Positions 891-44,495 are shown, numbered from the stretch's first letter. The stretch is DNA of 64,000 bases from Candidatus Krumholzibacteriia bacterium (GCA_963836185.1 CAWIIQ010000001.1:2163309-2227308); one strand, 5' to 3'. Translations and numbers: made by a program. The notes: generated from the sequence alone by a model not told the origin.

Positions 891-896
891 GTAATT

Positions 897-21639: not shown

Positions 21640-21933
21640 TTACTGCTCAGCTACTTCGATCCCAGCCTCTGTCTCGGTGTTCTCGAGCTCCTCCTTGTAG
21701 GCCTCCAGTATCAATCCCTCCATCCAGTCCCTGGTCTCGTTATTGATAGGATGAGCGACATCCTGATACGTGCCATCAGGCCTCTTGCGGCTGGGCATAG
21801 CGACGAAAACGCCCTTGGCGCCCTCGATGATCTTCAGTCCCCTGATAACGAAACAGTCATCTAGGGTGATACTCGCAAAAGCCTTCAGCTTGTTGTCGTC
21901 CCGAAGTGAAATCCTGATCTCAGATATCTTCAT
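21640..21933 (-). CDS. spoVG: septation protein SpoVG
   Basis: MKISEIRISLRDDNKLKAFASITLDDCFVIRGLKIIEGAKGVFVAMPSRK is near-canonical SpoVG. Confidence 0.9.
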   Translation of the reverse strand: MKISEIRISLRDDNKLKAFASITLDDCFVIRGLKIIEGAKGVFVAMPSRKRPDGTYQDVAHPINNETRDWMEGLILEAYKEELENTETEAGIEVAEQ

Positions 21934-21955
21934 GTGGCCCCCCCTGAATTCTTGC

Positions 21956-22840
21956 TTACTCCCTTTCTGGGAGTTCCATTGTCCGTCTGGCGGGATGTAC
22001 GATCCAGGCTGAATGGCCTTCGTCGGACATCAGGGCCCTCACCCTTGACGCCGTTGTATCGTCTTCGTAAAGCGCGAAACACGCCGACCCGCTTCCGCTC
22101 ATCGAACTGAGCCGCGCGCCCTCACGCTCCAGGAGAACCAGGATCTGCTCTATTACCGGATACTCTTCAGCAACGACTTCCTGAAAGCTGTTGCACGTTT
22201 CAAGAGCGACATCCGGAAATTCCTTCAATCCCCCCAGCAGACAATTCAGTTTATGACCGCCCCCAGACCTTGTCAATATTAAATTGGGATTTTGATAAGC
22301 CCACCTCGTGGAAACATTTATATCCGGTTTGACAATCAGTATCGTACCGTTTCTCAATCCCTCGATCTTCTCGAGGATCTCACCCCTGCCCCTCCCCGTC
22401 GCCGGTGAACCGAACAGAAAAAACGGGACGTCGGAACCTATCTCGAGCCCCATCTCCATCAGGCGCGAGCGTTCCACTCCCAGGCCGAGCAGCTCGTTTA
22501 TACCGGCGAGGACCCCTGCGGCATCCGAACTGCCGCCACCGAGTCCCGCCCCGGCAGGTATCCTTTTTTTCACGTCTATAGAAACGCCGTGCGATCCGGC
22601 AGCTTCGCTGAGCAGAAGCGAGGCCGCCTTCCAGCAGAGATTCGAGTCGTCCCACGCTATATCCCGGTCATCGCCCGTAAGCGAGATGCCGCCCGGCGTG
22701 CGCCCGATGAATATGGTGTCGTGGAGGGTCACAGGCTGAAAAACGGTCTCGATATCATGAAATCCGTCATCCCGCCTGCGGATGACGTCGAGGTAGAGGT
22801 TTATCTTTGCGAAGCATCTGACCGTGATCTGGTCGGTCAC
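21956..22840 (-). CDS. ispE: 4-diphosphocytidyl-2-C-methyl-D-erythritol kinase
   Basis: GHMP kinase motif (KRIPAGAGLGGGSSDAAG); start assigned to GTG at 22840, which overlaps the upstream gene's TGA (GTGA); ORF extends without stop to 23143. Confidence 0.85.
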   Translation of the reverse strand: MTDQITVRCFAKINLYLDVIRRRDDGFHDIETVFQPVTLHDTIFIGRTPGGISLTGDDRDIAWDDSNLCWKAASLLLSEAAGSHGVSIDVKKRIPAGAGLGGGSSDAAGVLAGINELLGLGVERSRLMEMGLEIGSDVPFFLFGSPATGRGRGEILEKIEGLRNGTILIVKPDINVSTRWAYQNPNLILTRSGGGHKLNCLLGGLKEFPDVALETCNSFQEVVAEEYPVIEQILVLLEREGARLSSMSGSGSACFALYEDDTTASRVRALMSDEGHSAWIVHPARRTMELPERE

Positions 22841-23910
22841 CTGTAGCTCTCCCAGAGATCGCCCCACTTGGTCTTTCTGAATTTCCTTATCTTCGAGCGC
22901 CCTACAGTCGGATACCAGAAGAAATCGTGGTAGATATTGCTCGCCATCGGCGCCCAGCCGACCAGGGGCGAATGCAGAGCCGGCTTCTCGAGGAACTGGA
23001 GGGGTCCTTTCCTCAACATCTGGTCGCCCCAGATGACGAAACTCTTTTTCACGGAGAACTCGAAGTTCAGTTCTTCGATATCCTCTCCGACTATTTCGAG
23101 ATTCTCGATCCTCGCCTCGCCCAACCCCCTCTCTGTCGACCACCTCAGGTAATCGATCGACATCGGGTCAAATCCCATAATCTTCGCTGCGACCGCGTCT
23201 ATCGCCACCGAATCGGCACTCGCAAGGATCAGGTCACCCTCGTAAGGATCCATCGTCCTCGGGCCGGCGCCGTTGCCGCAGACCGTGCCGTCCATGACGG
23301 CGAATATATTAGGATGAAGTTCACGCTGCATCAGCAGCAGGTCGACGAGGACCTCGTGCATATATTTATGGGCATAGTGCCTGACCTCCTTGAGCAATCC
23401 GCCGAAGGAGTTCTTGATAGCTCCCGTCGTCGTCGAATGGCCATGCGTCTTGACGGTCGGAAGGTGCATCACATCCCTGCCGATATACATCTTGGGAATC
23501 TCGATCCCCTCCGGGAATATCTCGCCGAGCTTGAGCAGCTTGGAGCGAAACTCGTAGACTGTCCATTCGACCTCGGTCAAAGGGGTGAACGGCAGCCCAT
23601 ACCTGTCGAGGACGGGCATCCAGAGGTTGTTTACCGCGCCCTTTCGAGGATCGGTGACGACGGTCCTGTTTTCTACCGGGATAAGCGAGTCCTTCGTGTA
23701 ACCCCTGCCGAGAAGGTCCCTGACAACGCCTTCGAGCTGCCATGGCTGACTCGAGCAGGAGGGGAAGTATTTTGTCCACGAGAGGTTGAGTTTCAGCAGC
23801 AGGTCCCGTTCGGCGGTCAGGATATCTCCGGCGCCGGCCATCTCCATCAGTCTGTGGTAATCCTCTACTACTGTTTCAGGAACCGTCCTTAGAACCGCTA
23901 CTTTGCTCAT
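22837..23910 (-). CDS. DUF362 domain protein
   Basis: 357 aa, resembles the DUF362 family (function unknown) from recognition of the translation; no catalytic motif assigned. Confidence 0.6.
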   Translation of the reverse strand: MSKVAVLRTVPETVVEDYHRLMEMAGAGDILTAERDLLLKLNLSWTKYFPSCSSQPWQLEGVVRDLLGRGYTKDSLIPVENRTVVTDPRKGAVNNLWMPVLDRYGLPFTPLTEVEWTVYEFRSKLLKLGEIFPEGIEIPKMYIGRDVMHLPTVKTHGHSTTTGAIKNSFGGLLKEVRHYAHKYMHEVLVDLLLMQRELHPNIFAVMDGTVCGNGAGPRTMDPYEGDLILASADSVAIDAVAAKIMGFDPMSIDYLRWSTERGLGEARIENLEIVGEDIEELNFEFSVKKSFVIWGDQMLRKGPLQFLEKPALHSPLVGWAPMASNIYHDFFWYPTVGRSKIRKFRKTKWGDLWESYR

Positions 23911-23958
23911 AATATCATCTTCTCTCCATATTAACTGCCCAGGCGACAGAGGGCCCGA

Positions 23959-24846
23959 TCATCTGACGATTATATATATAACTACCGCGAACCAGAGAAA
24001 GAGATCGATGATGATCGCTTTTTCAGTGAGCAGGACACCCGACGGATCGCCGCCCTCGTGCCTGCTGTATACGAGATAGAGATACCTCATGATCCCGAAG
24101 ACGACGAAAGGTATCGTGTAGACCAGGTCCCTCGTGCCGAACTTCAGCACTGTCGAGGGCCAGACCGTGTAGATCGAATACGAGATGATCGATGCGGTCG
24201 CGGAAAGGCTGACGAGCTGGTCGAGCAGCGTCACGGAGTAGTCCCTCAGTGACGTACGGTGATCACCCGCCGATACGAGATGCGTGATCTCGTTGCGCCT
24301 CTTGCAGATCGCCAGAAAGAGGGAGAGAAACAGTGTGCAGATCCAGAGCCAGGGCGAGAACTCGAGGTCAGGAATAACCGGGTGAAGCACCGCTACTCCC
24401 GATGCCGCCCTGATCAGAAAACTGAACGAGATCGCGATAACATCGAGTATGACGACATTGCGGAATATCAGTGAATAGGCGAGGTTGACTGTTACAAACG
24501 CCACGGACAGATAAAAGAACTCGCGTCCCAGGGTCCACGCGACGGGGAGCAGTACCGCAGTCACGAGTATCGCAATACTGGCCGCGAGACGCGGACTTAT
24601 CTTCCCCGCAGCTATCGGCCGGGCCGTCTTCTTCGGATGCTCCTTGTCCCTGTCTCTGTCGAAGACGTCATTGAGAATATAGATCGCACCGGACAGGCCG
24701 CAGAATACGAGAAATCCGTAGAGACTCAGACGGACGAGCTCAGGATCGGTAAATCTCTTGGAGAATACGATGCCGGCGAAAAGAACCAGGTTCTTGGTCC
24801 ACTGCTTGGGGCGCATCGAGATTATCAGGTACCAGATCTTGTTCAT
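23959..24846 (-). CDS. UbiA-family prenyltransferase (decaprenyl-phosphate phosphoribosyltransferase-like)
   Basis: Polytopic membrane protein with the UbiA Asp-rich motif NDVFDRDRDKEHPKKTARPIAAG; start at internal ATG (MNKIWYL). Confidence 0.7.
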   Translation of the reverse strand: MNKIWYLIISMRPKQWTKNLVLFAGIVFSKRFTDPELVRLSLYGFLVFCGLSGAIYILNDVFDRDRDKEHPKKTARPIAAGKISPRLAASIAILVTAVLLPVAWTLGREFFYLSVAFVTVNLAYSLIFRNVVILDVIAISFSFLIRAASGVAVLHPVIPDLEFSPWLWICTLFLSLFLAICKRRNEITHLVSAGDHRTSLRDYSVTLLDQLVSLSATASIISYSIYTVWPSTVLKFGTRDLVYTIPFVVFGIMRYLYLVYSRHEGGDPSGVLLTEKAIIIDLFLWFAVVIYIIVR

Positions 24847-24866
24847 GTCGGCAAATATACACATCC

Positions 24867-26084
24867 TTACGGCTGCCGGTCAAGAGGCGCGGTCGACACC
24901 CCTGCTCCATTCCCTCTGTACACGGCCGCGCAGAGGCCGACAATGATCAGCATCATCGTCAGTACCTCGGCGTCGCCGAAGTTCCAGTCGAACAGCCCGT
25001 TGATGATGAAACCTGTCAAGGCTCCGAGGGACCCGGCTGCCAGTGCTCTTTCAGGCGGCGGCAGGTCGAGGCGCAGGTTCCTCCCCACGATAATAAACAT
25101 CGCGGCGAGGAGCCAGACGAAAGCGGCGAGCCCGACCGATCCCAGGGTGACCGCCACCTGGAGGAAGATGTTGTGCATGTGGCCATGCACATGGACTGCC
25201 TCCGGAGGCATGTTCTCCCTGTATATGTCCCCGAGGTCCACCGGCCCGGTGCCGATCACGGGGTGCTGCCTGAATATGGAGGCCCCGCCCCTGATCATGT
25301 TGATTCTCTGGACATTCGTCCTGTATTGCGGATCCCAGATCGTCCTGATCCTTTCACGGTAGGGCTCCGGCGCGAACAGCACCAGGGCGACGGCGGCAGC
25401 GGCATAGAAAGGGATCCAGCGCCTGCGCACGACCGCAAGTATCGCCATGCCGGAAACGAACATTGCGAGCCATGAGGATCTTGTCTGGGTGAGCAGAAGT
25501 GCCGCGGAGGCCGCGGCAGCCGCGGCGATCGAGAATATCCTCAGTTTTCGAGGTATCCGCGGGGCGACTGACACTCCCGCGTAGAGAGAGAGCAGCAGCA
25601 TCATGATCCCGCCGAATGTCATCTCGTTGGAGAATGCTCCCGGTGTCCTGCCCATGCTTCCCCTGCCCATCCCAAGGAAATACAGCATGATACCGTAGAT
25701 GGCCGAACCCGTCCCCGAGACGAGCAGGACGAGGTATATCTTCTCGCGGACCGTCCGATCGACGGCCAGTGAAGCCGCGAGCCAGACCGTTACGAACAGC
25801 GTGTAGTTCTTCATGTTGCCGATAGCACCGGCCGGATCGCCTGAGAGCAGGGATGATAATATAGAGACAAGTGTGAATGCCGCCAGAGGCAGAGCGAGCG
25901 GCAGCCATCCCGGCCTCATCGAGCGGTCGAGCAGACATAGAACTGTCCAGAGAAGGACCGTGATCACGAGGGATGTCTGGTTGGCGGCAATCGAGAAGGT
26001 CGACGTGAAGATGAAGATCCCGAAGAAGAGAAGGGTCACCTGTCTCAGGCGGACGACGGCCGTGCGGCCGTCAGCCCTTCTCAT
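24867..26084 (-). CDS. O-antigen ligase / polymerase family membrane protein (Wzy_C-like)
   Basis: Multi-TM protein with a large periplasmic loop between helices, typical of the O-antigen ligase family; start uncertain (ORF runs to 26240). Confidence 0.6.
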   Translation of the reverse strand: MRRADGRTAVVRLRQVTLLFFGIFIFTSTFSIAANQTSLVITVLLWTVLCLLDRSMRPGWLPLALPLAAFTLVSILSSLLSGDPAGAIGNMKNYTLFVTVWLAASLAVDRTVREKIYLVLLVSGTGSAIYGIMLYFLGMGRGSMGRTPGAFSNEMTFGGIMMLLLSLYAGVSVAPRIPRKLRIFSIAAAAAASAALLLTQTRSSWLAMFVSGMAILAVVRRRWIPFYAAAAVALVLFAPEPYRERIRTIWDPQYRTNVQRINMIRGGASIFRQHPVIGTGPVDLGDIYRENMPPEAVHVHGHMHNIFLQVAVTLGSVGLAAFVWLLAAMFIIVGRNLRLDLPPPERALAAGSLGALTGFIINGLFDWNFGDAEVLTMMLIIVGLCAAVYRGNGAGVSTAPLDRQP

Positions 26085-28314
26085 GTTCCTCCACCCCGAT
26101 ACTGTTCGCAAAGTCGAGGAGGATACCTGATACCTTCCCGGATCCGCCTTCGGCCATCGCTCTCGAAATCTCCATGAGAACGCTGGATACATCCTCCGGA
26201 ACAGGAACAGGATCAGCCGGATTGAAACGCACCTTTCCATCGCCGGCCGGCGCCCCCGCTTCCCATACAGTCCCCTCCGCCCCGGAGAGCCGCCCCGCCG
26301 CGTCGGCCAGGCTCGCTGTACCGGCCATACCGTCTGTGCGGATGATCACGAGATCCTCAACCGAGTCCCTGAACAGGTTGCGCAAGAGAGTCTCACCGAG
26401 TAGAGAGGCGCGCCTGATATCATCGCTGCTGTGCGTTCCTCCACGGCTGATCACGACAAGTCTCGAGCCCGCAAGTACAGCAGCCGCCCCCAGCCTCTCG
26501 AGCGGCATGACGACCTTGCGGATGCAGGCGTCGAGCGGATTCGAGAGCTCGCGCGCGGGCATGTCGAAATCTGCGACCATCACGTCGGGGGATATCTCCT
26601 CGACGAGCCTGATCGTAGCCGGCCGGTCCTCCAGCAGGCCAAGATATACCCCGGCGGGAGACTCGAGGCAGGCGGAGCTCTCCCTTACGACGAACAGGTC
26701 GTCCGTGATCACCGACAGGCTCGCAGCCGTGCCGAATCTCGCGGGAGCCCCTCGTACGATCGGCCCGTTGCCGGCTGCCGCCACCTTCATCCCGGCAAAC
26801 GGCCCTTTTCCCGCGGATACGGTGCCGGCCGATTCCGATGGATCGCCGAGGATCCTGACAGGAACGCCGTAGCGCTCGAGCTGGTCGAATCTTTCCGGCG
26901 GGATCCGGCCCGCGTAGGTAGCCGAGATGACCACTTCATCGACTCCGTGATGGGCGGCGATACTCTCGATCTCACCCATGCTGCCGAGGACGGGTATACC
27001 ATGTATCCTTCTTCCATGCATCGAGCGCCTGTCGTCGAGCCAGCCGACAGGGTGCAGCCCCTTCGTCTGCTTAACCCGGTGAAGGACCGCCTCGGCGACA
27101 TGTCCCGTTTCACCGATGACGACTCTGCGCCCCTCGACCTCCTCGTGAGCGGGGAGCTCGTGGAACCAGCGTGTCACGACCCTCGCCCCCGCCATGAATA
27201 CTGTCAGTATGAAGAGGTCGATAAGAAAGACCGAGCGCGGGAAGGACTGAAATCTGAACAGGAATGTGAAAAGGACCACCATGATCGCCGAACCGACTGC
27301 GACCGCCTTGAATATCCTTACGATATCGTCAAATGTAGTATAACGCCAGACTGCCTTGTACAGGCCGTAGTAATAGAAGACAGCCGTCCTTATCACGACC
27401 GCTATCGGAAGGCTCACCATCATCGTGCGGGTCTCCGCCTCGGGGAAAGTGAAGTTGAGGCGGATCATATAGCTGAGGATGTAGCTTCCTCCGATCAGAG
27501 CGAGATCGGTCAGGGCGGCTGCGAAGATCCTCCTCGCGCTGCCCGCCTCACCCCCCTTTTCGAGTTTCCTGATCTTGAAGACTGCCCAGAGAAAGAATCC
27601 CGTCCAGATGACCGCCAGGCCCGAGATGAATTCGCTCTCGCCGCTCACAAGGAGAAACGCGCTCCCCCCCAGCAGGGCCGCGATGAAGTATTCGAGCAGC
27701 GTGACCTGCTTGTGTGAAAGGCCGAGATCGGTCAGCCTCTGGTAATAATGCGTCCTGTGTGCTGTAAATATCCTCTTTCTCTGTATCGTCCTTCTCGCCA
27801 GAGTCAGGGCAGCGTCGATGAGCACCCCCCCCATCAGGAGGATCGTTATGAAAGCGGGAACGCCGTGCCGGGCCCCGGCGACTGAGAGAACGGCGAACAT
27901 GAATCCGATAAACGTCGATCCGCAATCACCCATGAATATCCTGGCAGGCGGAAAATTATAGCGGAGAAAACCGAAGAGCACGCCGGCAATGGCGGCATAG
28001 ACTATCCCCAGGGCCGGATCTCCGACCGCGAACCCGAGCAGTACGAGAAAGACGGCAGCGATCATACCGACGCCGGCCGCCAGCCCGTCGAGCCCATCGA
28101 CGAAATTGTAGAAGTTGACGATAGCGGTGATCCAGACGATCGTCACCGGAATCGCCGCCGGTCCGAGTGAAACGGTCCCTACCAGGGGGATCATGACTTC
28201 ATCAAGCACGACGCCGGAGGCTATGACAGCACCCGCCGCAACGAGCTGCGCTGCCAGTTTCAGCCTCGCGTCGAGGCCGCGAAGATCATCCAGGAGCCCG
28301 ATCGCAGCTATCAT
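26071..28314 (-). CDS. fusion protein: WecA/MraY-like phosphoglycosyltransferase, PglF/CapD-like 4-TM plus CoA-binding domain, uncharacterised Ala/Gly-rich C-terminal domain; N-terminus displaced by a frameshift
   Basis: NFVDGLDGLAAG...RIFMGDCGSTFIGF (GT4 phosphoglycosyltransferase), then TM helices and RRVVIGETGHVAEAV...VGWLDDRR...GIPVLG (CoA_binding_3-like), then about 300 aa of unknown fold. The ORF begins mid-WecA domain. Confidence 0.65.
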   Translation of the reverse strand: MIAAIGLLDDLRGLDARLKLAAQLVAAGAVIASGVVLDEVMIPLVGTVSLGPAAIPVTIVWITAIVNFYNFVDGLDGLAAGVGMIAAVFLVLLGFAVGDPALGIVYAAIAGVLFGFLRYNFPPARIFMGDCGSTFIGFMFAVLSVAGARHGVPAFITILLMGGVLIDAALTLARRTIQRKRIFTAHRTHYYQRLTDLGLSHKQVTLLEYFIAALLGGSAFLLVSGESEFISGLAVIWTGFFLWAVFKIRKLEKGGEAGSARRIFAAALTDLALIGGSYILSYMIRLNFTFPEAETRTMMVSLPIAVVIRTAVFYYYGLYKAVWRYTTFDDIVRIFKAVAVGSAIMVVLFTFLFRFQSFPRSVFLIDLFILTVFMAGARVVTRWFHELPAHEEVEGRRVVIGETGHVAEAVLHRVKQTKGLHPVGWLDDRRSMHGRRIHGIPVLGSMGEIESIAAHHGVDEVVISATYAGRIPPERFDQLERYGVPVRILGDPSESAGTVSAGKGPFAGMKVAAAGNGPIVRGAPARFGTAASLSVITDDLFVVRESSACLESPAGVYLGLLEDRPATIRLVEEISPDVMVADFDMPARELSNPLDACIRKVVMPLERLGAAAVLAGSRLVVISRGGTHSSDDIRRASLLGETLLRNLFRDSVEDLVIIRTDGMAGTASLADAAGRLSGAEGTVWEAGAPAGDGKVRFNPADPVPVPEDVSSVLMEISRAMAEGGSGKVSGILLDFANSIGVEEHEKG

Positions 28315-28340
28315 CGCCGCCGCCCCGAGGATCCCGGCCT

Positions 28341-28568
28341 TCAGTCGACGCCTGGAAGGGGATCGAATCCGGCTATCCTTGCCGTAAGTATCGTCAGGTA
28401 GAAGTCGAGGACGATGGCGACCCCGCCGAGACGCGGTTTGGGCACCTCGTGGGAGCCGCGGTCGGTCGGCATATCGAGCAGGGACCGGCGAAGCGAATAG
28501 CGGAGTATCGCTCCTGTCATCAGGAACGAGATGAGTAATGCTTCCAAAAAGAACAGAAGTTCACGCAT
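28341..28568 (-). CDS. N-terminal fragment of the WecA-like phosphoglycosyltransferase (different frame from 26071..28314)
   Basis: MRELLFFLEALLISFLMTGAILRYSLRRSLLDMPTDRGSHEVPKPRLGGVAIVL is a WecA N-terminus; separated from the downstream part by a frame change near 28340-28370. Confidence 0.6.
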   Translation of the reverse strand: MRELLFFLEALLISFLMTGAILRYSLRRSLLDMPTDRGSHEVPKPRLGGVAIVLDFYLTILTARIAGFDPLPGVD

Positions 28569-28765
28569 GCCGAGCTTCCCGGGCGAAATGCCGCTTTCCG
28601 CAAAGCCTGATAATACTTTATGAGAGGGGGGCGGACAAGCGATTTCGGGCGTTCTCGCGCATCCCGGGCACGGACTCAATTAATAACCTTGCCGGTGTGC
28701 CGGATGCCTATTAATATGCTCCGGGATCAGGATATCTGACACCCTTTCCCCGGATCTGCAGCTTT

Positions 28766-29939
28766 ATGAAGGACAGGATATCAGTCGCGCATCTGATAAC
28801 GGGCACCTCTACCGGAGGCGCCGAGACGATGCTCCATAAGCTCGTCTCGAGGATCGACAGGGAAAGCTTCGACGTCAGCGTGATCTCGCTGACGACGGCC
28901 GGAGAGATAGGCAGGAGGATGATCGAGGAGGGTGTCCCTTTCCATTCGATCGAAGCATCGAGAAGCGGGCTCGACCCCGCGGCGCTCGCCAGGCTGATCC
29001 GGCTCCTGCGCCGGGCCCGTCCAGATATACTTCAGACGTGGATGTATCACGCCGACCTGGCCGGCGGACTGGCCGCCAGGTTCGCGCGCTCGATCCCCGT
29101 CGCCTGGAACATCCGCCACAGCGACCTCGATCCCGGCCACATGAAAAAACGTACGATACAGATCGCGAAATTGTGCTCCCGCCTGTCCCGGCGCCTCCCC
29201 GACAGGATCGTCTGCTGCTCGCGAGCCTCATGGAGACACATGCGGCGATTGGATACGACAGGGAGAGGATGGTAGTCATACCGAACGGATTCGACACATC
29301 TCTCTTCGTTCCCGACAGCGGAGCGCGGAGCTCGGTCCGCGAAGAGCTCGGCCTCGACAGGGACACGCCCCTGGTCGGCCTCGTCGCCAGGTACCATCCA
29401 CAGAAGGACCACGCGACATTCATCCAGGCGGCCGGCATCCTGCGCTCCGAGATGCCCTGAGTGCGCTTCGTCCTCTGCGGAGAGGGAGTGTACGGCAGAG
29501 AACGGCGACCTTGCCGGTATGATCGAAGGGGCCGGGCTGCGATGAATGCGGCCTTTCTCCTCGGACGCCGTTCCGACATCCCGCGGATACAGGCGTCACT
29601 CGATATCGCTTCGTCCTCCGCTTCGAGCGGTGAGGGGTTCCCCAATATCATCGGAGAGGCGATGTCGTGCGGGGTCCCCTGCGTCGTGACCTCTGTCGGC
29701 GATTCGGCCGAGATCGTGGGAGATTGCGGCATCGTGGTCGAGCCCGGGGACCCGGAAGGCACTAGCCGCGGGATGGAAGAAGATACTCACTATGAGAAGC
29801 GGGGACCGGAGCGCGCTCGCTCGGCAGGTGCCGCGAGAGGATCGAAAAAAAGTTCGAGATAGGCGCCGTGACCGCCCGGTACGAAGTGATGTATCTCGGG
29901 ATGTGCGGGAAACGCGGAAGATCCGGCAGCGGCGCGTGA
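28766..29939 (+). pseudogene. GT4-family glycosyltransferase, disrupted (at least two frameshifts and one in-frame TGA)
   Basis: GT4 N-terminal domain in frame 2 (28766..29275), middle in frame 1 (to 29460), in-frame TGA at 29458..29460, EGFPNIIGEAMSCGVPCVVTSVGD (GT4 E-x7-E region) in frame 1, C-terminal tail in another frame ending at TGA 29937..29939. Confidence 0.65.
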
Positions 29940-29951
29940 GGATCCAGTCAA

Positions 29952-31095
29952 TTACGCCCGGTAAGTGAGATCGAGCCTTTCGACCTGAAGCCGTGTCACG
30001 CGGTGTTCGTCGAAGTGATCGAGGACCCTCTGCCTGCCGGCCCTTCCCATCCCTGCTGACATATCGGCGTCCGAGAGGATCTTCAGCATCGCCTCTCCCA
30101 GGGCATAGTGATCACGGGGCGGCACGAGAAGCCCGGTCTCGCCGTCGACGACCTCCTCCCTGCACCCCCTGATATCGGTCGCGGCCACAGGCAGGCCGCT
30201 GGCCATCGCCTCGAGCAGCGAACGAGGCATCCCCTCGCGATAGCTCGGCATCGCGAATAGATCGAGCAGCGAGAGGATCGCAGGGACGTCCTCCCTGTAT
30301 CCTGTCATAACAAGCCGTCCAGACAGCCCCTCGCTCTGCACCAGGCCCTCGATCTCCGCGAGGCAGCCGTCGCGGTCGCTCTCGAGAGGGGCTCCGATCA
30401 TGATGAACATCGAACCGGGAAGCTCGCGCGAGACTATCCCCGCCGCTTTTACGAACTCGACCGCTCCCTTCTCCCTGACGATCCGCCCGGTGAACCCCGC
30501 GACAGGGGCGCTGTCGATACCTAGCTCTTCCCTCAGAACAGCTGCCGCCGAGGCGTTCGCCTCACGTCCGAAGAGGGAAGGATCGACACCGTTTCCGATA
30601 TGTACGAGCTTTTCCACCGGCGCGATCCGGGACTCGACCGCTTCCTCGAGGTCTTCGCCGCTCTGTACGAAGACAGGTCGCATATCGATGCCCCGAATCG
30701 TTCGATCGAGCGCATCACACGGCGCTGCGTTCCGCGCATGTCCTCGTGGAAATAAAACCCGTGGGCGGTATACACGACCCATTTCACACGGGCCATCCTG
30801 GCCGCCACCCGCCGAGCAGCCCCGCGACGGGAGTATGGGTATGTACTATATCGAATCTTTCCCGGAGCATCAGACGGTACAGACGGACAAGCGAGATTGT
30901 ATGGGAGAAGATATTGTACGACCTCGAGACAGGGATCCTGAATACGCTGAAGCCCTCCTGCTCCAGGCGATCGAGCCCCCTGCCCGGTGAGCAGCAGAAC
31001 GACACCTCATAACCCGAATCACGAAGAGCGAGGCCGAGAGGCCTGAGAAGATGGTATGCAGTAAAATCGACAGCGCAGAGCTGCAGGATCTTCAT
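29952..31095 (-). pseudogene. GT4-family glycosyltransferase, disrupted (two frameshifts)
   Basis: N-terminal domain (MKILQLCAVDF...HTHTPVAGLLGG) in ORF 30784..31278, middle (MARVKWVVYTAHGFYFHED) in ORF 30533..30808, C-terminal domain (REKGAVEF...PSYREGMPRSLLEAMASGLPVAATD) in ORF 29952..30782: three frames for one gene. Confidence 0.65.
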
Positions 31096-31126
31096 TCCGC
31101 CCCTCCGCCATGGGACCGGCCGGCTC

Positions 31127-31730
31127 TCACGCCTGGCCGGGAGAAGAAAGAATCTCCTCGACCAGCCCGCAGAGGATATGCCCGAGGGCCATATGGATCT
31201 CCTGTATGCGGGCGAAATCGTCATCCGGCACGATGATAGCGAGATCGGCCTGTCCGGCCATAGCTCCGCCGCCTGCACCGGTAAACGCGAGCGTCTTCAT
31301 GCCGAGACTCGCCGCCATCGACAGCGCCTCGACGCAGTTGGCCGAGTTGCCGCTCGTCGACAGCGCCAGCAGCACGATCGCCTTCGCTGCCGAGCGCCTC
31401 TATCTGTTTGGAAAAGACATCGTCGTAACCGAAATCATTCGCGATCGCCGTGACGACCGAGCTGTTCGTTGTCAGAGCGAATGCCTTGTATCCACTGAGT
31501 TTCTTTCTGCGGAACCTTCCGACGAGCTCGCCGGCGATATGCTGCGCGTCCGCCGCGCTTCCGCCATTGCCGCATGTGAGGACGACCTTGCCCGATCTCG
31601 ATCGCGCGAGACATAAGTCCGCCATCTCGACAAGAATCACGGCCTGCTCGCGAGGAAACGATTCGAGAGCACGCCTGAGGGCATCGATCTCGCCGAGTAC
31701 CTGTTCGATATATCCGTCACTCTTTTCCAT
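31127..31730 (-). CDS. gmhA: phosphoheptose isomerase (SIS domain), interrupted by a +1 frameshift near 31385
   Basis: N-terminal part [11 protein letters not shown]...[19 protein letters not shown]...EALGSEGD in one frame, C-terminal part [16 protein letters not shown]...[19 protein letters not shown] in the next; one extra base in ggcgatCgtgctg. Confidence 0.75.
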
Positions 31731-31752
31731 ATTCTCACCCTTATCGCAGAGG

Positions 31753-33237
31753 CTATGACCGTGACAGCGCCACGATCGAGATAACGAGCGTTCCGACCCC
31801 GATGAGCCCTGTAAAGATGTCTGCGAATATCCTCGTCTTGCTCCGCTTGATGATGATGACGTCTCCGCTGTTCGGCCGGTAGGTGCTGTCAGTACCGATC
31901 GAAGTCCCATCTTTCGAAATGACTATGACCCTGTCGATACTGCCCTCGTGCGTGGGGCCTCCCACCGCGCCGACATACTGCGCGACTGTCCAGTTACTGA
32001 CGAACATCACTTTCCCCGGCAGCTGGACCTGGCCGCCGACAGCCACGGTCTGTTCGACAGTCGGAATGTGCAGGATGTCTCCATCTATCAGGGGGATATC
32101 CTCTGCTGTGCTCGGCGGCACGAATGACTTGAGGTCGACCGGTATCAGCTCACCCGTCGTCCTCTCGAGCGTCGCGGCGGTAAGGTCGGCATTCGGATTA
32201 TAGATCGCCACGCGGCCGAGGAGGCTCCGGAGCCCCTCCCCCTCGGTGATATAATAATCGCCCGTCTGCTGAGTCGCTCCGAAGACAAAGACCCTGCTCG
32301 TACCGGTCATCCCGTCTATCACATTCACCTCGTCGCGGTCATCGAGGATCATGTCGAATTCGGAGGACGGGACCTGCATCGTCGTTACCGAACCGTCTTC
32401 GTGGATCCTCGTGAGCAGGACCCTGTCCCTCAGCGCCTCCGCCCTGAATCCCCCGGCGAGGTCGATCAGGTCGCCGACCGTCTCACCCGGCAGGATCTCG
32501 TAGTTAAGCTGTTTATGTACCGCACCTCTGATCGAGGCGTGCCGCCTGGCGACCGGGACGTGTATCCGGTTACCGTTTGAGAGGAATGGATTGGTTGAGA
32601 AATCACCTTTCAGGACATACCGCAGGATATCCACTTCGAGAGTGTCGGCATCCCTGTACAGAAGGACCCGCCTGTTCGACCCCTCTGATATTATGCTGCC
32701 CGCGAGCTCGACCGCGTCCGATACACGCTGCACCGCCGAGACATTGACGGCCCCCGGAGTCGAGACCTCGCCGGTCACGAAGACCCTGAACACACGCGGT
32801 TCCTGCAGGTAACAGAAGATCCGCACGTTCTTGAAGAACCTGTTGACCTCCTCGTCAAGCCTCTTCCTGAACTCGTTGAGGGTCAGACCGTCCGCCTTTA
32901 TCGCGCCGACACTTGGAACGAAAACGTCGCCTTCCGGCAGGACCACCATGGCGAAGGTCCTCGACTCTGTCCCGATGACGTTGACAAGAAGCCTGTCGTA
33001 CGGTCCGAGGACATACTGGTCGGGGTCGATCGCTTTTTCGAGTTTCGGGATGTCATAACTCGATCTCTGCCGTTCGACGACCTGGCCGTAACCTGATTCC
33101 TTCTTTTCCAGCTCTACCTGGCTCGTCGGGTCCTGCAGCTGTGTGTCGATGCTCTGTGCCGGAGCGCCTACGGTCGAAAGTGCCACCGCGGCGCAGACGG
33201 CGGCGATCATAACGAGTATACGTTTCATTTTCCTCAC
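31753..33237 (-). CDS. polysaccharide export protein (Wza-like)
   Basis: Signal peptide, Poly_export-like N-terminus and repeated SLBB-type segments, C-terminal hydrophobic helix; sits in the polysaccharide locus. Confidence 0.75.
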
Positions 33238-35915
33238 CGTCCGTTGATCAATCTCTCAACTAATCCGGGGATAGCCTCGAAGACCCGCTGCTCACTGTCG
33301 AGTTCCTTCGTGCCCAGCTGGGCGAGATGTTTCTTCCCGCCCCCTCCTCCTCCGGCCAGGGGACCGAGTTCCTTGACGATATCGACAGCTGTGACTCCCT
33401 TTCCGACAAGATCGTCGGTAACGGTGATCACGAAATGCATCTTTCCCTTGTCCGGCATCGAGAGGACCGCGACACCAGAGGGCACCTTCTCCCTGAACGA
33501 GTCGGCAAGGCCCCTCAAGGCTCCAGCGTCTCTCGCGCCCGGCCTGCCCGTCGCGATCATGAATCCCGAGATCTCATTCGCCTCTCTTATGATATTATCG
33601 AGCTGGCTGCCGCCGCCCTTCTCGAGTATCTTTATCTCCTTCTTCATCTCTTCCACTGTCTCGAGCATCGCCCCGATCCTAGCCTTCATCTCTGCCGGGG
33701 TCGTCCTGAGAAGGGACGCCGCTTCTTCCTCACGGTCGAACGAGTCGTGGACATGGCGCAGGGCTCCCTGTCCGGTCACGGCCTCGATCCTGCGCACCCC
33801 GGCCGCGACACTGCTCTCCGACACTATCAGGAAAAGTCCTGCCTGGCCAGTCGATGAGAGATGAGTGCCGCCGCACAGTTCGGTAGACACGTCTCCCATA
33901 TGGACCACGCGGACCTTCGTCCCGTACTTCTCGTCAAAAAGGGCGATGGCTCCGGAATCGATCGCTCCCTGGTAGTCCATCAGCTCTGTTCTCACCTCGA
34001 GAGCGTCCCGGATCCACCGGTTGACGAGTTCCTCTATCCTTCTCTTTTCCTCACCGGTGACCGCCTGGAAATGATTGAAATCGAATCTCAGCCTGTCCGG
34101 CCCGACGAGCGAGCCGGCCTGCGCGACGTGCCCGCCGACGATCTCCCGCAGCGCGGCATGAAGCAGGTGAGTCGCGGTATGGTTTGCCGCCGTCGCCAGC
34201 CTCGCCTCGTTATTGATATGAAGTGTTATCTTTGGATCCTTCTCTACCAGTTCCCCGATACCGGAAATATCATCGGCAGCCTCGGCAAGGTGGATTATCT
34301 CTCCGCCTCTCTTGAATACGTCGCGGATCTCCAGCCTGCCGCCGGTCATCTCGATCCAGCCGCTGTCGGCCATCTGCCCGCCCGATGTGGCGTAGAACGG
34401 AGTCCTGTCGAGGACGAGTTCGACCGCGGGAGTATTCGCCCGGGACCATGTGACATCTTTCCTCTCCGCTTTATCGAGCACCCTGTACCTGCGCACCTCG
34501 GCCTCGCCGCCGACGCTCTCGTACCCGGTGAAGATCGAACTCTCCCCCTCGGACAGTTCTGTCATCTCGACAAGCGCCTGCTCGCCCGCGTCGAAGGCGC
34601 TGCTCCTCTGAGCGCGTTTCCGCTGCTCCTCCATGGCGGCAGCGAAACCTTCCTCATCGACTTCGAGCCCTTCTTCCGCAGCGAGGGCGATCGTCAGTTC
34701 AAGAGGGAACCCGTACGTATCATAAAGTAAAAATGCCTGTTCGCCTGCGATCGCCTTGCCCTTGTCGTTCCTTATATCATCGACGATGACGGCGAACCTC
34801 GACTTGCCGTCCTCCAGGGTCCTGTAGAAGCTCTCCTCCTCCGCCCTGATTATCATCGCGGTGTCAGGCGCCCTCTCGACAAGCTCGGGATAGTCCTCTC
34901 CCATCACCCTGACTACCTCGTCGACCATGCCGTAGAGGACCGGCCCGTCGATCCCGAATGTATGAAGCCGCGTCAGCGCACGCCTCAGTATCCTTCTGAG
35001 TATATATCCCCTGCCTTCGTTCGACGGGTATATCCCCTCTGAGATCGTGAATGTCAGCGCCCTTGCATGATCGGCGATCATGTTGATACCGAGTTTCGCC
35101 TCGCCGGCCGTATCGGTGCCTTCGGGAAGAAGCGCGATAACGGCATCGACGAGGGGCTGGAATATATCTGTGTGAAAATTGTCCTCGGCCCCCTGCATGA
35201 TCATCGCGATCCGCTCGAGGCCGGCGCCCGTATCGATACCAGGTTTCTCAAGGGGCCTGTACGTCCCGTCCTCCTCTAGGAAGAACTGCGGGAATACGAG
35301 GTTCCAGAACTCGAGATAGCGGTCGCAGTCGCATCCCGGGGCGCACTCCGCGCTTCCGCATCCCCTGGCCTCGCCCGCGTCGTAATAGATCTCCGAACAG
35401 GGGCCGCAGACACCGGTACTGCCGACGGGGCCCCAGAAATTGTCCTTGCGGCCGAGCCTGACGATCCTGTCGGCAGGCACTCCTATCTTCTCGTTCCATA
35501 TCCCGTAAGCCTCGTCGTCATCCTCGAAGATGCTGACGTAGAGACGGTTCTCGGGGAGCTGGAGCACATCGATGACAAACTCCCAGGCCCATTCGATCGC
35601 CTCGACCTTGAAATAGTCGCCGAAACTGAAATTACCGAGCATCTCGAAGAAGGTATGGTGGCGAAGCGTCCTGCCTACGCTCTCGAGGTCTCCGGCCCTG
35701 AGGCATTTCTGGACGCTGACCGCCCTAGTATAGGGAAGGTTGTCGGGCGAGAGGTAGAAATCCTTGAACTGCACCATCCCGGCGGAGGTAAAGAGGAGCG
35801 TCGCGTCGCCCTTCGGCACCAGCGGCGCGCTAGGCACCTCAGTGTGCTTCCTCTCGAGGAAGAAATCGAGGTAGGCTTTCCTTATATCGTGAGCTGTCCT
35901 GATATTACTGTTCAT
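33234..35915 (-). CDS. alaS: alanine--tRNA ligase
   Basis: 893 aa with class II aaRS catalytic domain (FTSAGMVQFK), editing-domain zinc motif (HTATHLL...CGGTH) and C-terminal C-Ala-like region. Confidence 0.95.
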   Translation of the reverse strand: MNSNIRTAHDIRKAYLDFFLERKHTEVPSAPLVPKGDATLLFTSAGMVQFKDFYLSPDNLPYTRAVSVQKCLRAGDLESVGRTLRHHTFFEMLGNFSFGDYFKVEAIEWAWEFVIDVLQLPENRLYVSIFEDDDEAYGIWNEKIGVPADRIVRLGRKDNFWGPVGSTGVCGPCSEIYYDAGEARGCGSAECAPGCDCDRYLEFWNLVFPQFFLEEDGTYRPLEKPGIDTGAGLERIAMIMQGAEDNFHTDIFQPLVDAVIALLPEGTDTAGEAKLGINMIADHARALTFTISEGIYPSNEGRGYILRRILRRALTRLHTFGIDGPVLYGMVDEVVRVMGEDYPELVERAPDTAMIIRAEEESFYRTLEDGKSRFAVIVDDIRNDKGKAIAGEQAFLLYDTYGFPLELTIALAAEEGLEVDEEGFAAAMEEQRKRAQRSSAFDAGEQALVEMTELSEGESSIFTGYESVGGEAEVRRYRVLDKAERKDVTWSRANTPAVELVLDRTPFYATSGGQMADSGWIEMTGGRLEIRDVFKRGGEIIHLAEAADDISGIGELVEKDPKITLHINNEARLATAANHTATHLLHAALREIVGGHVAQAGSLVGPDRLRFDFNHFQAVTGEEKRRIEELVNRWIRDALEVRTELMDYQGAIDSGAIALFDEKYGTKVRVVHMGDVSTELCGGTHLSSTGQAGLFLIVSESSVAAGVRRIEAVTGQGALRHVHDSFDREEEAASLLRTTPAEMKARIGAMLETVEEMKKEIKILEKGGGSQLDNIIREANEISGFMIATGRPGARDAGALRGLADSFREKVPSGVAVLSMPDKGKMHFVITVTDDLVGKGVTAVDIVKELGPLAGGGGGGKKHLAQLGTKELDSEQRVFEAIPGLVERLINGR

Positions 35916-36585
35916 CTGCCTCTCCGGTGATCTCTCCTCTCAATATCCCCGCGCATATGCTTCCGACGACACCGGACGCGAAGCCTCTACGGGAGAGATA
36001 GCCTCCTATCCTTCGCGCCGCCTTTTCCCTGCCGGACCTGGATTCAGCCGCTGCGGCGCGCGCAAGCCTGTCCAGGGCCATCTTCGAGGCCAGCCTCTCC
36101 TCCTCGCCGGGAGGAAAAGCGTCTGAGAGCAGTTCGTCTATGACCTCGGCCTCGACCCCGGCCCCCGACAGCTTCCTTCTCAGAAGAGCCGGCCCGGCGG
36201 GGTTGTGCCTCAGCCTGTATCCTATGAGCTCCGAAGCGAACCGCCTGTCGTTCAACAGGTTCTTCCTCTTGAGCGTCTCGACAATATAATCCATCGAGGC
36301 CGGATTATCTATACCTTCCGCCTCGAGTTCCTCGCGCACCTCATGCTCGGTCCGTTCGCGTCTTGACAGGAAACTGAGGGCGCGGGCCATTCCCGCCTGC
36401 CGGGCTACCGGCCCCTCAAGCTCCTCGATGTCGCCGGGGTCGAGCACGGCGCCTTCCTCGAGGAAACGCTCCGTCGCGGGGGTCTTCAGGACGAGATAAA
36501 TCTTTCCCGACGAGGTCGTTACCCTGCGGAGCGACCCGGTGCTTCTCGATACCGATACTATCTCAGTGCTGCTGCTCAAGGTCAT
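35905..36585 (-). CDS. recX: regulatory protein RecX
   Basis: Directly downstream of recA; helical-repeat protein of RecX size and composition. Confidence 0.7.
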   Translation of the reverse strand: MTLSSSTEIVSVSRSTGSLRRVTTSSGKIYLVLKTPATERFLEEGAVLDPGDIEELEGPVARQAGMARALSFLSRRERTEHEVREELEAEGIDNPASMDYIVETLKRKNLLNDRRFASELIGYRLRHNPAGPALLRRKLSGAGVEAEVIDELLSDAFPPGEEERLASKMALDRLARAAAAESRSGREKAARRIGGYLSRRGFASGVVGSICAGILRGEITGEADEQ

Positions 36586-36594
36586 GGTCCGGGC

Positions 36595-37761
36595 CTACAC
36601 CTGTTTCAGATCGGCCTCGCCGCCGTCACCAGCAGGAGCCGCCGTCTCTTTCGCCACGGTAGAAGCAGGTGCGGCAGCGGGGACCGGCGAAGCGTCAAGC
36701 CCGTAGTGCTCGCGCACACTGGTCTCTATCTCGGCTCGTATATCGGTGTTCTCCTTGAGGAAAATCCGGGTATTGTCCTTGCCCTGGCCGAGTCTTGTCT
36801 CTCCCCAGGAATACCAGCTGCCCATCTTCGTCAGTATGCCGGAGACTACGCCCAGCTCGATCAGGTCGCCCTCGAGGCTGATACCCTCGCCGTAGAGTAT
36901 CTCGAATTCGGCCTGGCGGAATGGCGCGGCGACCTTGTTCTTGACGACCTTGACCCTCGTCATGTTCCCGATGATGCTCTCGCGGTCCTTTATCTGTCCG
37001 ATGCGGCGGATGTCCATCCTCATCGTCGCGTAGAACTTCAATGCGTTTCCACCCGAAGTAGTCTCGGGATTACCGAACATCACGCCGATCTTCATCCGGA
37101 TCTGGTTGGTGAATATCATACATGTGCGCGATTTTGAGACCGCGCCCGCTATCTTTCTGAGGGCCTGCGACATCAGCCTCGCCTGGAGGCCGACATGCGA
37201 GTCACCCATATTGCCCTCGATCTCGGCCGAAGGCACGAGTGCCGCGACCGAGTCGATCACTACAACGTCGATCGCGTCGCTGCGGATGAGGACCTCGGCG
37301 ATCTCGAGCGCCTGCTCGCCCGTATCAGGCTGGGATATGAGAAGGTTGTCGATATCGACCCCTATCTTCCTCGCGTAACCGACGTCGAGAGCATGCTCGG
37401 CATCGATGAAAGCAGCCACGCCTCCGAGCTTCTGCGCGTTCGCGACTATCGAGCAGGCAAGGGTCGTCTTGCCCGATCCCTCGGGCCCGTAGATCTCCAT
37501 CACCCTGCCCCGCGGCACTCCCCCGATCCCCGCCGCGATATCGAGCGCGAGGCTGCCGGTAGGAATAGCCTCTATCTCCTGGTGCGCGCCTTCCTCGCCC
37601 AGGCGCATGATCGCTCCTTTTCCGAACTGTTTCTCTATCTGGTCGACAGCAAGCTCGATCGCCTTGCCCTTGTCGCCCTGTTTCAAAGCCGGTTTTGTGC
37701 TTTTTACCATCTTTGACACCTTCTGGGTCCTTGTCTTTTTACCGAATCTGTCCGCGTTCAC
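36595..37761 (-). CDS. recA: recombinase RecA
   Basis: Canonical RecA ([16 protein letters not shown], Walker [13 protein letters not shown]1/L2 loops). Start is either GTG 37761 (preceded by GGGAGG) or ATG 37710. Confidence 0.95.
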
Positions 37762-41967: not shown

Positions 41968-42073
41968 TGCTTTCTCCCTGTGTTTAGCAAGAATCTTGCC
42001 TTGTTTCATGTTCTGAGGCACGATGGGAAAAGATAAGCCGCGAAAAAGAATGGTGTTCCCTGCGGCGGAAGGT

Positions 42074-42385
42074 CTAGAACATCCCTGGCAGGCCCATTCC
42101 GCCGGTTATCGAGCTCATCCCGTCCTTCAGCATCTCTTCAATACGGCTGGCCGCCTCTGTAACCGCCGCGGCTACGAGATCTTCGAGCATCTCCACATCC
42201 TGCGGATCCACGACTTCCGGATCGATCGTCACGGAGACTACCTCGTGTCTGCCGTTCATGACCACCTTGACCATACCGCCCCCGGCTGAGGCCTCAACGC
42301 TCTTTTCAGCCAGTTCTGCCTGCATCTGGGCCATTTTCGCCTGCATCTGCTGCGCCTGTTTGAGAAGCTTGCCCATGTCCTTCAT
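42074..42385 (-). CDS. ybaB: nucleoid-associated protein YbaB/EbfC
   Basis: MGKLLKQAQQMQAKMAQMQAELA...GMGLPG is YbaB-like. Confidence 0.88.
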   Translation of the reverse strand: MKDMGKLLKQAQQMQAKMAQMQAELAEKSVEASAGGGMVKVVMNGRHEVVSVTIDPEVVDPQDVEMLEDLVAAAVTEAASRIEEMLKDGMSSITGGMGLPGMF

Positions 42386-42434
42386 TATGTTCTCCCCGTC
42401 TTTCTTGTTTATTGTTTTCTCCGGGACCGCCGAA

Positions 42435-44301
42435 TCAGTCCAGGAGCTCCGCGTCCAGGCTCTTCATGATCCGGTCCAGTGCCGGGCTTTCGGTTTTTGC
42501 GGCTCCGGCTTTCTTTTTAGCGGCGCGGGGGCCCTTTTTCCCGGGCTTCGCTCCGGCAACCTGCCTGTCTGCCGGCTCAGGACCCTCTTCTGCCCCTTCC
42601 GGCTCTTTGCCGCCCGGACGCGGTTTTGTCCGCGCGTCTATCTCCATCTTTGCCTGGTTGTCGGGACTGCCCACTTTGATATCGACCGTTTCACATGTCT
42701 CCACGGTAAATTTTCTTCCATAGAACTTTTCGAGATGATCCTCTATCAGCCGCCTGTTCTTCGCGTCTCTTATCATCGCCATGGCGAACCTGTTCTGCGG
42801 CGAAAAGGAGAGGATCAGGTTCCCATCCTCGATACCGGCGACCTCCGCCGACATCAGCCATATACCGACGGTGAGCTTCGCTTCCCTGACCTGCGCGAGA
42901 AACCGCTCCCACTCATCCCTGCCACCGAGAGCTTCAAGAAGGGGATTCTCCCTGACCGGTATCTCGGGGGTCCCGGATGGCCCTGCCGCCGGTTCTTCCG
43001 CCGGGGATGCCCCGGCCGCGGGCGAGTCGGACGGCGCGGCAGCGTCGACCATTGCCGACGACATCGCCGGCCCGGATCCTTCCGCTGCTCCCGGCCTTTC
43101 AGCCTGTCCCCGCCTGGCGGCTCCGCTGCCGTTCGCCGCGCTCCCTGATACCGCGGATGCGCCACCCTCTCCGGACTCGAGCCTGCTGATAAGTTCGCCT
43201 ATCTCCACCGCCGATTCCCAGGATGCGGCTTCCGCCACGGCTGCTTCAATATGATATCGCGGATTGCTCGTACCCTTTAGCTCACGGTGCGCCCTCGACA
43301 TCGAGCGGAAAATAAACAGCAGGTCCTCTATCTCGAACTTCTCCGCGATCGCGGACAGTTCCTCTATCTCGCCCGAAGTGAGGTCGAGCCAGTCGGTCCG
43401 GCCTGCCGATACCGAGATGACCAGCAGATTCCGTATCCCTTCGATGAAGCCGATGAAGAACTCTTCGAGATCCATGCCGGAAGCGGTCACCCGGTCCACT
43501 ACCGAAAGCGCCTCGTTCCTGTCACGGCGGCTCACCGCGTCGAGCAGTCCGGAGACGATCTGTGAATCGACCAGTCCCAGGACCTTCCGGACGGTATCGA
43601 GGTCGATCTTTTCTTCGGCGGCCGAAATACACTGGTCCAGCAGTGATTCCGCGTCGCGCATCGAACCGTCGGCCCTTCTGCATATCAATGTCAGCGCTTC
43701 AGCGATCGTACTTTATCTTCTCGGAATCGCATATCCTTTTGAGCTGCCCGGAGAGTTCGGACAGTTCGAGCCTCTTGAAATTGAATCTCTGGCAGCGCGA
43801 CAGGATCGTAGCGGGGACCTTGTGCGGCTCTGTCGTCGCGAATATCAGGTAGACATGTCCCGGGGGTTCCTCGAGAGTCTTGAGCAGGGCATTGAAAGCC
43901 TGCTGAGTGAGCATGTGGACCTCGTCGATGATATAGATCTTCGAGCTGGACTGCGAGGGGGCGTACCCGATCTTCTCCCTCAGGTCCCTTATCTCATCGA
44001 TCCCCCTGTTGGATGCACCGTCGATCTCTATCATGTCGAGATGGTTGCCGCTGTTTACGGAGACGCATGAGGAGCACTTGTTGCATGGCTCGCCGTTGTC
44101 GGGTTCCTCGCAGTTGATGATCTTCGCGAGCAGCCGAGCCGTCGTGGTCTTGCCGCAACCGCGCGGTCCAGAAAAGAGATAGGCATGCGCCAGCCTGCCC
44201 TTCTCGTAGGCCTTCTGGAGTGTGGACGTGACATGGTCCTGGCCGACTACCTCGGCGAAGGTCCCGGGTCTCCATTTTCTGGCAAGCACGAGATAAGACA
44301 T
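42435..44301 (-). CDS. dnaX: DNA polymerase III subunit gamma/tau, interrupted by a 1-nt frame change near 43695
   Basis: N-terminal AAA+ module (GPRGCGKTTTARLLA, zinc module CNKCSSC, SRCQRF) in ORF 43699..44301; continuation (IAEALTLICRRADGSMRDAESLLDQ...) in ORF 42435..43688; reading is restored by inserting one A in tacgat^tcgctg. Confidence 0.9.
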
Positions 44302-44379
44302 GAGCGCAGTCCCCCGGTAAGAAGTTCAGGAGACCGTGCACCCGGAATCGAAAGGCACCCCCGGCTCTTGCGTCAGGGT

Positions 44380-44495
44380 TAGCTCCTGTCAGGATACCCG
44401 CGGCACATAAGAATGACTGCGTACCGCTGCTACCTTCCGGTCCTGACGGGGTTGGCAGGTTCTCATTGCGCGGGTCCTGGCACTCAACACCACTT
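44380..44495 (-). ncRNA. ffs: signal recognition particle RNA (small, 4.5S type); boundaries approximate
   Basis: Minus strand GUCAGGACCGGAAGGUAGCAGC (44447..44426) matches the conserved domain IV motif GUCAGGUCCGGAAGGAAGCAGCC; location immediately upstream of dnaX is the conserved ffs-dnaX-ybaB-recR synteny. Confidence 0.75.

Follow-up and report, generated by a model that had tools for sequence, protein, structure and literature searches.

We analyzed a 64,000-nucleotide stretch of DNA from a Candidatus Krumholzibacteriia bacterium (GCA_963836185.1, CAWIIQ010000001.1:2163309-2227308; hereafter the window, with positions counted from its first letter), in which four consecutive genes of a polysaccharide biosynthesis locus appear to be broken: a WecA-like transferase, two family 4 glycosyltransferases (GT4 'A' and GT4 'B') and a gmhA-like isomerase. 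With a probability of roughly 0.85, the lesions in these genes are consensus artefacts, which arose when two alleles of a conserved glycan locus were collapsed into one sequence. In the living bacteria the four surface-glycan genes are almost certainly unbroken, and the disrupted locus is not real as a biological feature. An open reading frame (ORF) map of 24-34 kb, a Pfam profile search on the ORF pieces and tblastn with the WecA-like proteins of relatives delimit the four genes as follows, each of them being split across frames within these coordinates:

26071-28568, minus strand: WecA/MraY-family polyprenyl-phosphate N-acetylhexosamine-1-phosphate (HexNAc-1-P) transferase (WecA-like); PF00953 and PF13727; 832 aa when read through
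28766-29939, plus strand: GT4 glycosyltransferase 'A'; Pfam matches on the pieces; 389 aa when repaired
29948-31095, minus strand: GT4 glycosyltransferase 'B'; Pfam matches on the pieces; 382 aa when repaired
31127-31730, minus strand: gmhA-like SIS-domain sugar-phosphate isomerase; Pfam matches on the pieces; 200 aa when repaired

The evidence for a collapse of alleles comes from comparison with near-identical sequences, for which we used three contigs (L001, L088 and L084) of the Logan assembly of the public short-read run ERR11523668, L001 having been found by an exact-protein look-up with the intact alaS. L001 (8543 bp) matches the window at 28551-37100 with 99.05% identity: Its differences amount to 69 mismatched columns and 17 gap openings, all of which lie at or below 33103, and positions 33104-37100 are identical. 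L088 (6270 bp) matches 21695-27964 with no gap and with four single-nucleotide polymorphisms (SNPs), all at or beyond 27394, of which the nonsynonymous one is an Ala-to-Ser exchange derived in L088 and the other three are synonymous. L084 (1900 bp) covers 42056-43956 and differs there by one SNP and one indel. Since the flanks covered by L088 and L001 are 100% identical (21695-27393, 5.7 kb, and 33104-37100, 4.0 kb), the window and ERR11523668 share an essentially identical chromosome except for a segment of 5.7 kb:

27394-33103, no strand: allelic divergence hot spot; 73 SNPs against L001/L088

The SNP density is 0.014 per bp within this segment and 0.00009 per bp in the compared flanks, which corresponds to a ratio of about 165. 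The two alleles diverge by ~1.4% over the hot spot and by 3.2% in GT4 'A', which forms the divergence peak (38 SNPs in 1.17 kb) with values falling on either side. The 69 substitutions relative to L001 comprise 40 synonymous and 28 nonsynonymous changes and one stop, and 41 of the 69 are located at codon position 3. Because of this enrichment at synonymous sites the substitutions represent real variation, and random sequencing error is ruled out as their source. Segment 27394-33103 is a strain-level divergence hot spot of an ordinary kind that is allelic only and as such not new. Two of the k-mer contigs of ERR11523668 break off within the hot spot, L088 at 27964 and L001 at 28551, as would be expected if both alleles branched the assembly graph of that sample, which we take as a hint only.

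Alignment of the window to L001 and to five or six outgroups, with which the differences were also polarized, resolves the lesions individually:

28344, minus strand: WecA-like lesion; 1-bp deletion; residues 1-75 in frame -3, residues 76-832 in frame -2 (tblastn with P0004/5/6/8)
29230 (-1), 29492 (+1), 29542-43 (+2), 29760 (+1), 29821 (+1) and a TGA at 29458-29460, plus strand: GT4 'A' lesions; against L001 and outgroups
30810 (-1), 30674 (-1) and 29966 (+1), minus strand: GT4 'B' lesions; against L001 and outgroup alignments
31620 (-1), 31598 (+1) and 31375 (+1), minus strand: gmhA lesions; against L001 and outgroup alignments
28569-28765, no strand: divergent intergenic region between the WecA-like gene and GT4 'A'; two indels plus SNPs against L001
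28670 (+1) and 28732 (+2), no strand: intergenic indels; against L001

All events are 1-2 bp in size. Between 28344 and 31620 the genes contain 12 indels and one nonsense codon, and two further indels are intergenic. The original prediction, made from the sequence alone, had described four consecutive broken genes, and the pieces do lie in different frames; the separate frame that it had noticed for the N-terminus of the WecA-like protein is caused by the single deletion at 28344, and its 'at least two frameshifts' plus a TGA in GT4 'A' correspond to five indel events plus that TGA. GT4 'B' and gmhA are likewise broken as claimed, yet by three indels each (in gmhA -1, +1, +1) instead of two frameshifts and a single +1 frameshift, respectively. 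Thus, the predicted dense cluster is present and its size of about eight lesions was an undercount. Two pairs of indels compensate locally (29492 with 29542-43 and 31620 with 31598), and therefore fewer breaks had been counted. For the other 58 kb about six lesions had been reported: The background is indeed sparse, with four frameshifts confirmed by comparison of related loci and by Pfam matches on adjacent ORF pieces, and maybe one or two more. The other candidate junctions checked in the window turned out to be ordinary neighboring genes, not frameshifts. Given a background of 4-8 lesions, 0.2-0.4 would be expected in the 3277-bp span in which 13 are seen (Poisson P 3e-19 to 2e-15), so that the clustering is far beyond chance and a real property of the sequence.

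The position and the identity of the inserted and deleted bases link the indels to the allelic differences. At 31375 the window reads GAT-C-G-TG, where the codons of L001 are GAT CTG (Leu) and those of every outgroup GAx GTG (Val), and at 29492 it reads GTG-T-A-CG, where L001 has TCG and all outgroups have ACx. The same pattern is seen at 29760 (window G-G-C-A, L001 GGA, outgroups GCG) and at 29542-43, where ATGAAT in the window is the union of TAAT in L001 and AGAT, the sequence we assign to the other allele. Conversely, the bases deleted at 30810, 30674, 29230 and 31620 are A, C, C and T in L001 and C, G, A and G in the outgroups; the base missing at 28344 is the first of codon 76, at which relatives carry ATG or TCx. 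Of the eight inserted bases, five are identical to the allele that most outgroups carry in the adjacent column (null 0.118, P = 9e-4), and all four testable deletions fall on differences between L001 and the outgroups (null 0.179, P = 1e-3), which gives a combined P of 1.4e-5 by Fisher's method. All indels for which a near-identical reference is available are located within the SNP hot spot or, in the case of dnaX, at an isolated variable site. No mutational process is known to retain the two alleles of a SNP next to each other or to delete both.

Removal of the indels restores gmhA, GT4 'B' and GT4 'A' to 200, 382 and 389 aa, with 96-99% identity to the L001 proteins, and leaves one TGA in GT4 'A'. 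The gene calls of L001 include uninterrupted copies of gmhA (200 aa) and GT4 'B' (382 aa), and its GT4 'A' has an open frame throughout. The WecA-like protein matches PF00953 (E = 4.6e-38) and PF13727 (E = 2.7e-13), is collinear with 832-aa homologues bar the 1-bp gap and is 91% identical to its closest relative (P0004), gap-free apart from the frame break, with tblastn revealing no further gap or stop. The pieces of GT4 'A' and 'B' match successive profile parts (Glyco_transf_4/Glyco_trans_4_4, then Glycos_transf_1/Glyco_trans_1_4), and both Rossmann-like GT4 domains are found in the right order (PF13439/PF13579, then PF00534/PF13692), all of which are carried by the intact genes of L001 and of the related contig L087. 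The gmhA pieces match positions 4-104 and 107-138 of the SIS_2 profile (SIS families PF13580/PF01380); the gene name is the label of the original prediction, and the specificity for sedoheptulose-7-phosphate is putative. In the WecA-like protein the transferase domain is fused to CoA_binding_3 and to a C-terminal region of ~290 aa that has no Pfam match, and this 832-aa architecture is kept across Krumholzibacteriota and Latescibacteria-like metagenome-assembled genomes (MAGs; homologues P0004-P0123).

Comparison with related genomes, a check that the original prediction had itself proposed, shows the locus intact in all those examined. L005, L006, L007 and L087, and also L003 and L086 as far as they cover the locus, share the gene order alaS, Poly_export, gmhA, GT4 'B', GT4 'A' (on the opposite strand), WecA-like, Wzy_C, UbiA, and none of their genes is split across frames; the locus is thus syntenic and intact in 6 of 6 related Krumholzibacteriota genomes that cover it fully or partly, and most of the order is also retained in more distant relatives. 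Because order and frames are kept in relatives, the locus belongs to the conserved core and is not an island of variable gene content. Its neighboring genes in the window are:

24867-26084, minus strand: Wzy_C (O-antigen ligase/polymerase-like) gene; intact; part of the conserved locus; identical to L088
31753-33228, minus strand: Poly_export/SLBB (Wza-like) polysaccharide export protein; intact; inside the hot spot; 11 SNPs and no indels against L001
33234-35915, minus strand: alaS; intact

The alaS protein matches Candidatus Krumholzibacteriota MAGs at 84-88% identity, and a scan of the GTDB representative set with alaS yielded no genome of the same species (best identity 88%). A 38-mer of GT4 'B' scanned against the JGI metagenomes returned no match, and neither did exact-protein look-ups with six proteins of the window, namely Poly_export (with two start codons), UbiA, RecA-like, OFOR-beta, PgpA and a 192-aa protein. 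The L001 proteins are singletons within their clusters in the protein collection. A literature search for the accession ERR11523668 likewise turned up nothing specific.

How the two alleles relate to each other follows from the polarization. At most sites the window has the base of the outgroups: 53 derived substitutions fall in L001 and 11 in the window (binomial P = 1e-7), and the nonsynonymous ones are distributed as 25 versus 2. This gives the ancestral bases to the window and rules out an ancestral L001 from which the window would have decayed. The L001-derived changes are biased from GC to AT. The 25 nonsynonymous ones cluster in GT4 'A', and at 17 of them no more than one outgroup differs from the window base. 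As a separate observation, these changes suggest accelerated or diversifying evolution of the ERR11523668 allele; that one allele holds nearly all derived changes is not predicted by a simple import through recombination under a molecular clock.

Based on these results, we propose the following sequence of events. The source population would carry two alleles, hapA near the ancestral state and hapB matching the ERR11523668 contigs, and an assembler, probably working on long reads, would have merged them into one sequence. At most SNP sites the consensus would take one base, usually that of hapA. At about one polymorphic site in six, however, the alleles would be treated as an insertion plus a deletion, and the consensus would then emit both bases side by side (+1) or neither of them (-1), each event shifting the frame. 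Because every such both-or-neither event shifts the reading frame, the density of frameshifts would track the density of SNPs and would thus be expected to produce an extreme cluster at the locus and sporadic hits in dnaX, cinA, the alpha subunit of 2-oxoacid:ferredoxin oxidoreductase (OFOR-alpha) and an aminotransferase. The original prediction had named a strain-variable locus with a collapsed consensus as one of two options; the allelic hot spot and the indels on SNP sites bear this out, and only the gene content proves not to be variable.

Several points weigh against the collapse of two alleles as the origin of the lesions. For three inserted bases out of eight, namely those at 29966 and 29821 and one of the two at 29542-43, the outgroups give no confirmation. 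That the source is a long-read assembly is only suggested by a contig of >1 Mb seen in protein block lists, which carries the same alaS, YbaB and Wzy_C proteins. The presence of both alleles in the reads that built the window is something we infer and have not seen, the consensus step causing the error comes from our own reasoning on alignment-based consensus, and our literature search found no description of the exact artefact with both alleles in tandem. As the species was found neither among the GTDB representatives nor, with the 38-mer, in the JGI metagenomes, hapA could not be observed directly. Finally, the TGA at 29458-29460 is a substitution and as such lies beyond the both-or-neither mechanism. 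L001 has TCA at this position, and the residue varies among relatives (G/R/L/E/H, and S in L001). The codon could be a mosaic, with T from TCA of hapB and GA from xGA of hapA, or a real nonsense variant. A selA gene for L-seryl-tRNA(Sec) selenium transferase is located at 6991-8466 (minus strand), and because of its presence the organism probably uses selenocysteine, which bears on in-frame TGA codons elsewhere in the genome. For GT4 'A' we considered selenocysteine recoding for this reason and ruled it out, the residue being variable in relatives.

The confirmed frameshifts outside the locus are the following:

42435-44301, minus strand: dnaX; lesion at 43705; 1-bp insertion that separates the AAA+ module from the lid domain
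~39273: cinA; single-base frameshift
~51421: OFOR-alpha; single-base frameshift
~56304-56307: class-V aminotransferase (iscS/nifS-like); single-base frameshift

In dnaX the window reads GA-T-C-GCT, where L084 has GAC GCT and one relative has GAT. The extra base is missing from L084, which is 99.9% identical and whose partial dnaX copy is uninterrupted across the site. The other three sites, which were read without a near-identical reference, can be read in the same way: cinA (GGG-A-G-GAG) fits synonymous GGA/GGG kept in tandem, OFOR-alpha (AC-T-G-GAC) fits synonymous ACT/ACG and the aminotransferase (GTC-A-T-CG-AAT) fits ACG/TCG (Thr/Ser). To judge from these readings, the background frameshifts would share the form of the lesions in the locus. 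A programmed frameshift in dnaX is known from Escherichia coli; it is ruled out here by the location of the break between the AAA+ and lid domains and by the lack of the extra base in L084. Directly upstream of dnaX lie a large bacterial signal recognition particle RNA and two tRNAs (44334-44830, minus strand), and an FMN riboswitch is found at 770-893 (minus strand); these elements all score at or above the Rfam gathering thresholds and are nothing unusual. Moreover, a multihaem cytochrome c gene (Cytochrome_C7/MtrC-like domains; 48007-49413, plus strand) has the HNH-domain gene on one side and the oxidoreductase operon on the other. The gene calls of L082 and L083, the closest relatives, include none at this place, and this points to an insertion specific to the strain or the species.

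Among the other explanations, an unlikely one is generic long-read error, that is, a local drop in coverage with few noisy reads and random indels but no allelic mixing. As the scattered hits in housekeeping genes demonstrate, there is a certain floor of indel errors in the assembly, and a strain-specific segment would naturally have lower depth. Random errors, however, would not land on columns in which L001 and the outgroups differ, nor would they insert the ancestral allele, as the combined P given above indicates. They would also add substitutions to the window, which is nearly free of derived changes. A further discrepancy concerns the sequence context. Natural slippage favors homopolymers, and the consensus errors of nanopore sequencing concentrate there likewise (PMC9262707). 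In contrast, this holds for no indel that can be checked against a near-identical reference: For the 12 single-base indels of this kind the inserted or deleted base never equals either neighbor, although 43% of the window bases have an identical neighbor (0.571^12 = 1.2e-3), so that this neighbor-base analysis yielded no unambiguous single-base indel inside a homopolymer. Tandem Repeats Finder detected no tandem repeat at any lesion. As GATC, CGATCG or TCGA occur near several lesions, we also considered errors tied to methylation motifs or sequence context and rejected them, since no k-mer was clearly above background at the 82 difference sites.

Even less probable is a genuine recent pseudogenization, in which one strain would have inactivated the WecA-like gene, both GT4 genes and gmhA, for example to escape phages or under relaxed selection. 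Four adjacent genes of the same pathway are hit by lesions clustered far beyond chance, one of these lesions is a plain nonsense substitution (TCA to TGA), and surface-glycan genes are commonly subject to strain-level loss and variation (PMC9426551). Nevertheless, the pattern of substitutions is not that of a locus under relaxed constraint: Only 11 window-derived substitutions, two of them nonsynonymous, accompany 15 indels, whereas neutral decay with this number of indels predicts at least 75 (P <1e-19, with a neutral indel:substitution ratio of 1:5 assumed). The indels sit on SNP sites and carry the alternative allele, several pairs of them compensate locally, and none is found in the homopolymers or repeats in which natural indels concentrate. 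In addition, the damage is not confined to dispensable genes, as the essential dnaX and housekeeping genes share the type of lesion, while Poly_export and Wzy_C of the same pathway are untouched. Decay under relaxed selection, the other option of the original prediction, is therefore left unsupported by the small number of derived substitutions, by the full length of the genes once the indels are removed and by the equal damage in dnaX.

It is highly improbable that the indels are real on single molecules, in which case ~15 frameshifts would each have arisen at a mismatch between two alleles diverged by 1.4-3%, for example by error-prone heteroduplex processing after homologous recombination that leaves both alleles in tandem or neither; if true, this would constitute a recombination-coupled mutational mechanism not described in bacteria. 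A programmed or regulated change of frame, by slipped-strand phase variation or programmed ribosomal frameshifting, would suit glycosyltransferase genes, which are classic phase-variable loci in some bacteria, but is effectively refuted by the absence of a homopolymer or simple-sequence tract at any lesion and by a lack of conservation of the frame changes, with relatives and the near-identical contig reading straight through, up to five events of mixed sign per gene and identical lesions in dnaX and cinA.

Taken at face value, the sequence would suggest the loss of a conserved surface-polysaccharide pathway from a Krumholzibacteriota lineage, a conclusion that would be wrong. The collapse of two alleles, which we consider the origin of the lesions, would inflate pseudogene counts and lower the apparent pathway completeness of the genome. 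In collapsed metagenome assemblies the density of frameshifts can mirror local strain diversity, and for this reason the most variable and ecologically interesting loci are likeliest to be mis-annotated as broken. The signature of this process can be read from the sequence alone: indels outside homopolymers, an inserted base that is the alternative allele of its neighbor, locally compensating pairs and no excess of derived substitutions on the lineage. With its help, sites of this kind might be flagged or repaired even without reads, and the locus may serve as an example for quality control.

The locus can finally be compared with known systems. Clusters of pseudogenes occur in decaying surface-polysaccharide loci of host-restricted bacteria. 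These resemble the present case in that several adjacent glycan genes have interrupted frames; they differ in that here insertion sequence elements and deletions >2 bp are absent and derived or nonsynonymous substitutions are not in excess, in that essential genes are hit as well, and in that intact copies exist on a contig with 100% identical flanks. O-antigen islands are characterized by the replacement of gene cassettes, of which there is none at the present locus. Glycosyltransferase and lipopolysaccharide genes have been reported as microdiversity hot spots with high ratios of nonsynonymous to synonymous polymorphism (pN/pS), which are usually ascribed to phage pressure (PMC9426551). The ~165-fold SNP density centered on GT4, with an identical chromosome on either side, is of the same kind, whereas the gene content here is fully conserved across species and the variation is allelic only. 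With regard to the lesions themselves, frameshift errors are known to occur in long-read genome and metagenome assemblies (proovframe preprint 10.1101/2021.08.23.457338; PMC9262707), and long-read assemblers reportedly collapse strains that are ~97.6-98.7% identical into one consensus (Strainberry, PMC8302730). Our case corresponds to both: Indels of 1-2 bp split genes, including essential ones, the probable source contig is >1 Mb, and the two alleles merged here would be ~97-98.6% identical. It departs from the usual nanopore errors in its sites, for these errors occur in homopolymers, while the indels that can be compared with a near-identical reference occur at SNP sites, with both alleles or neither of them retained.

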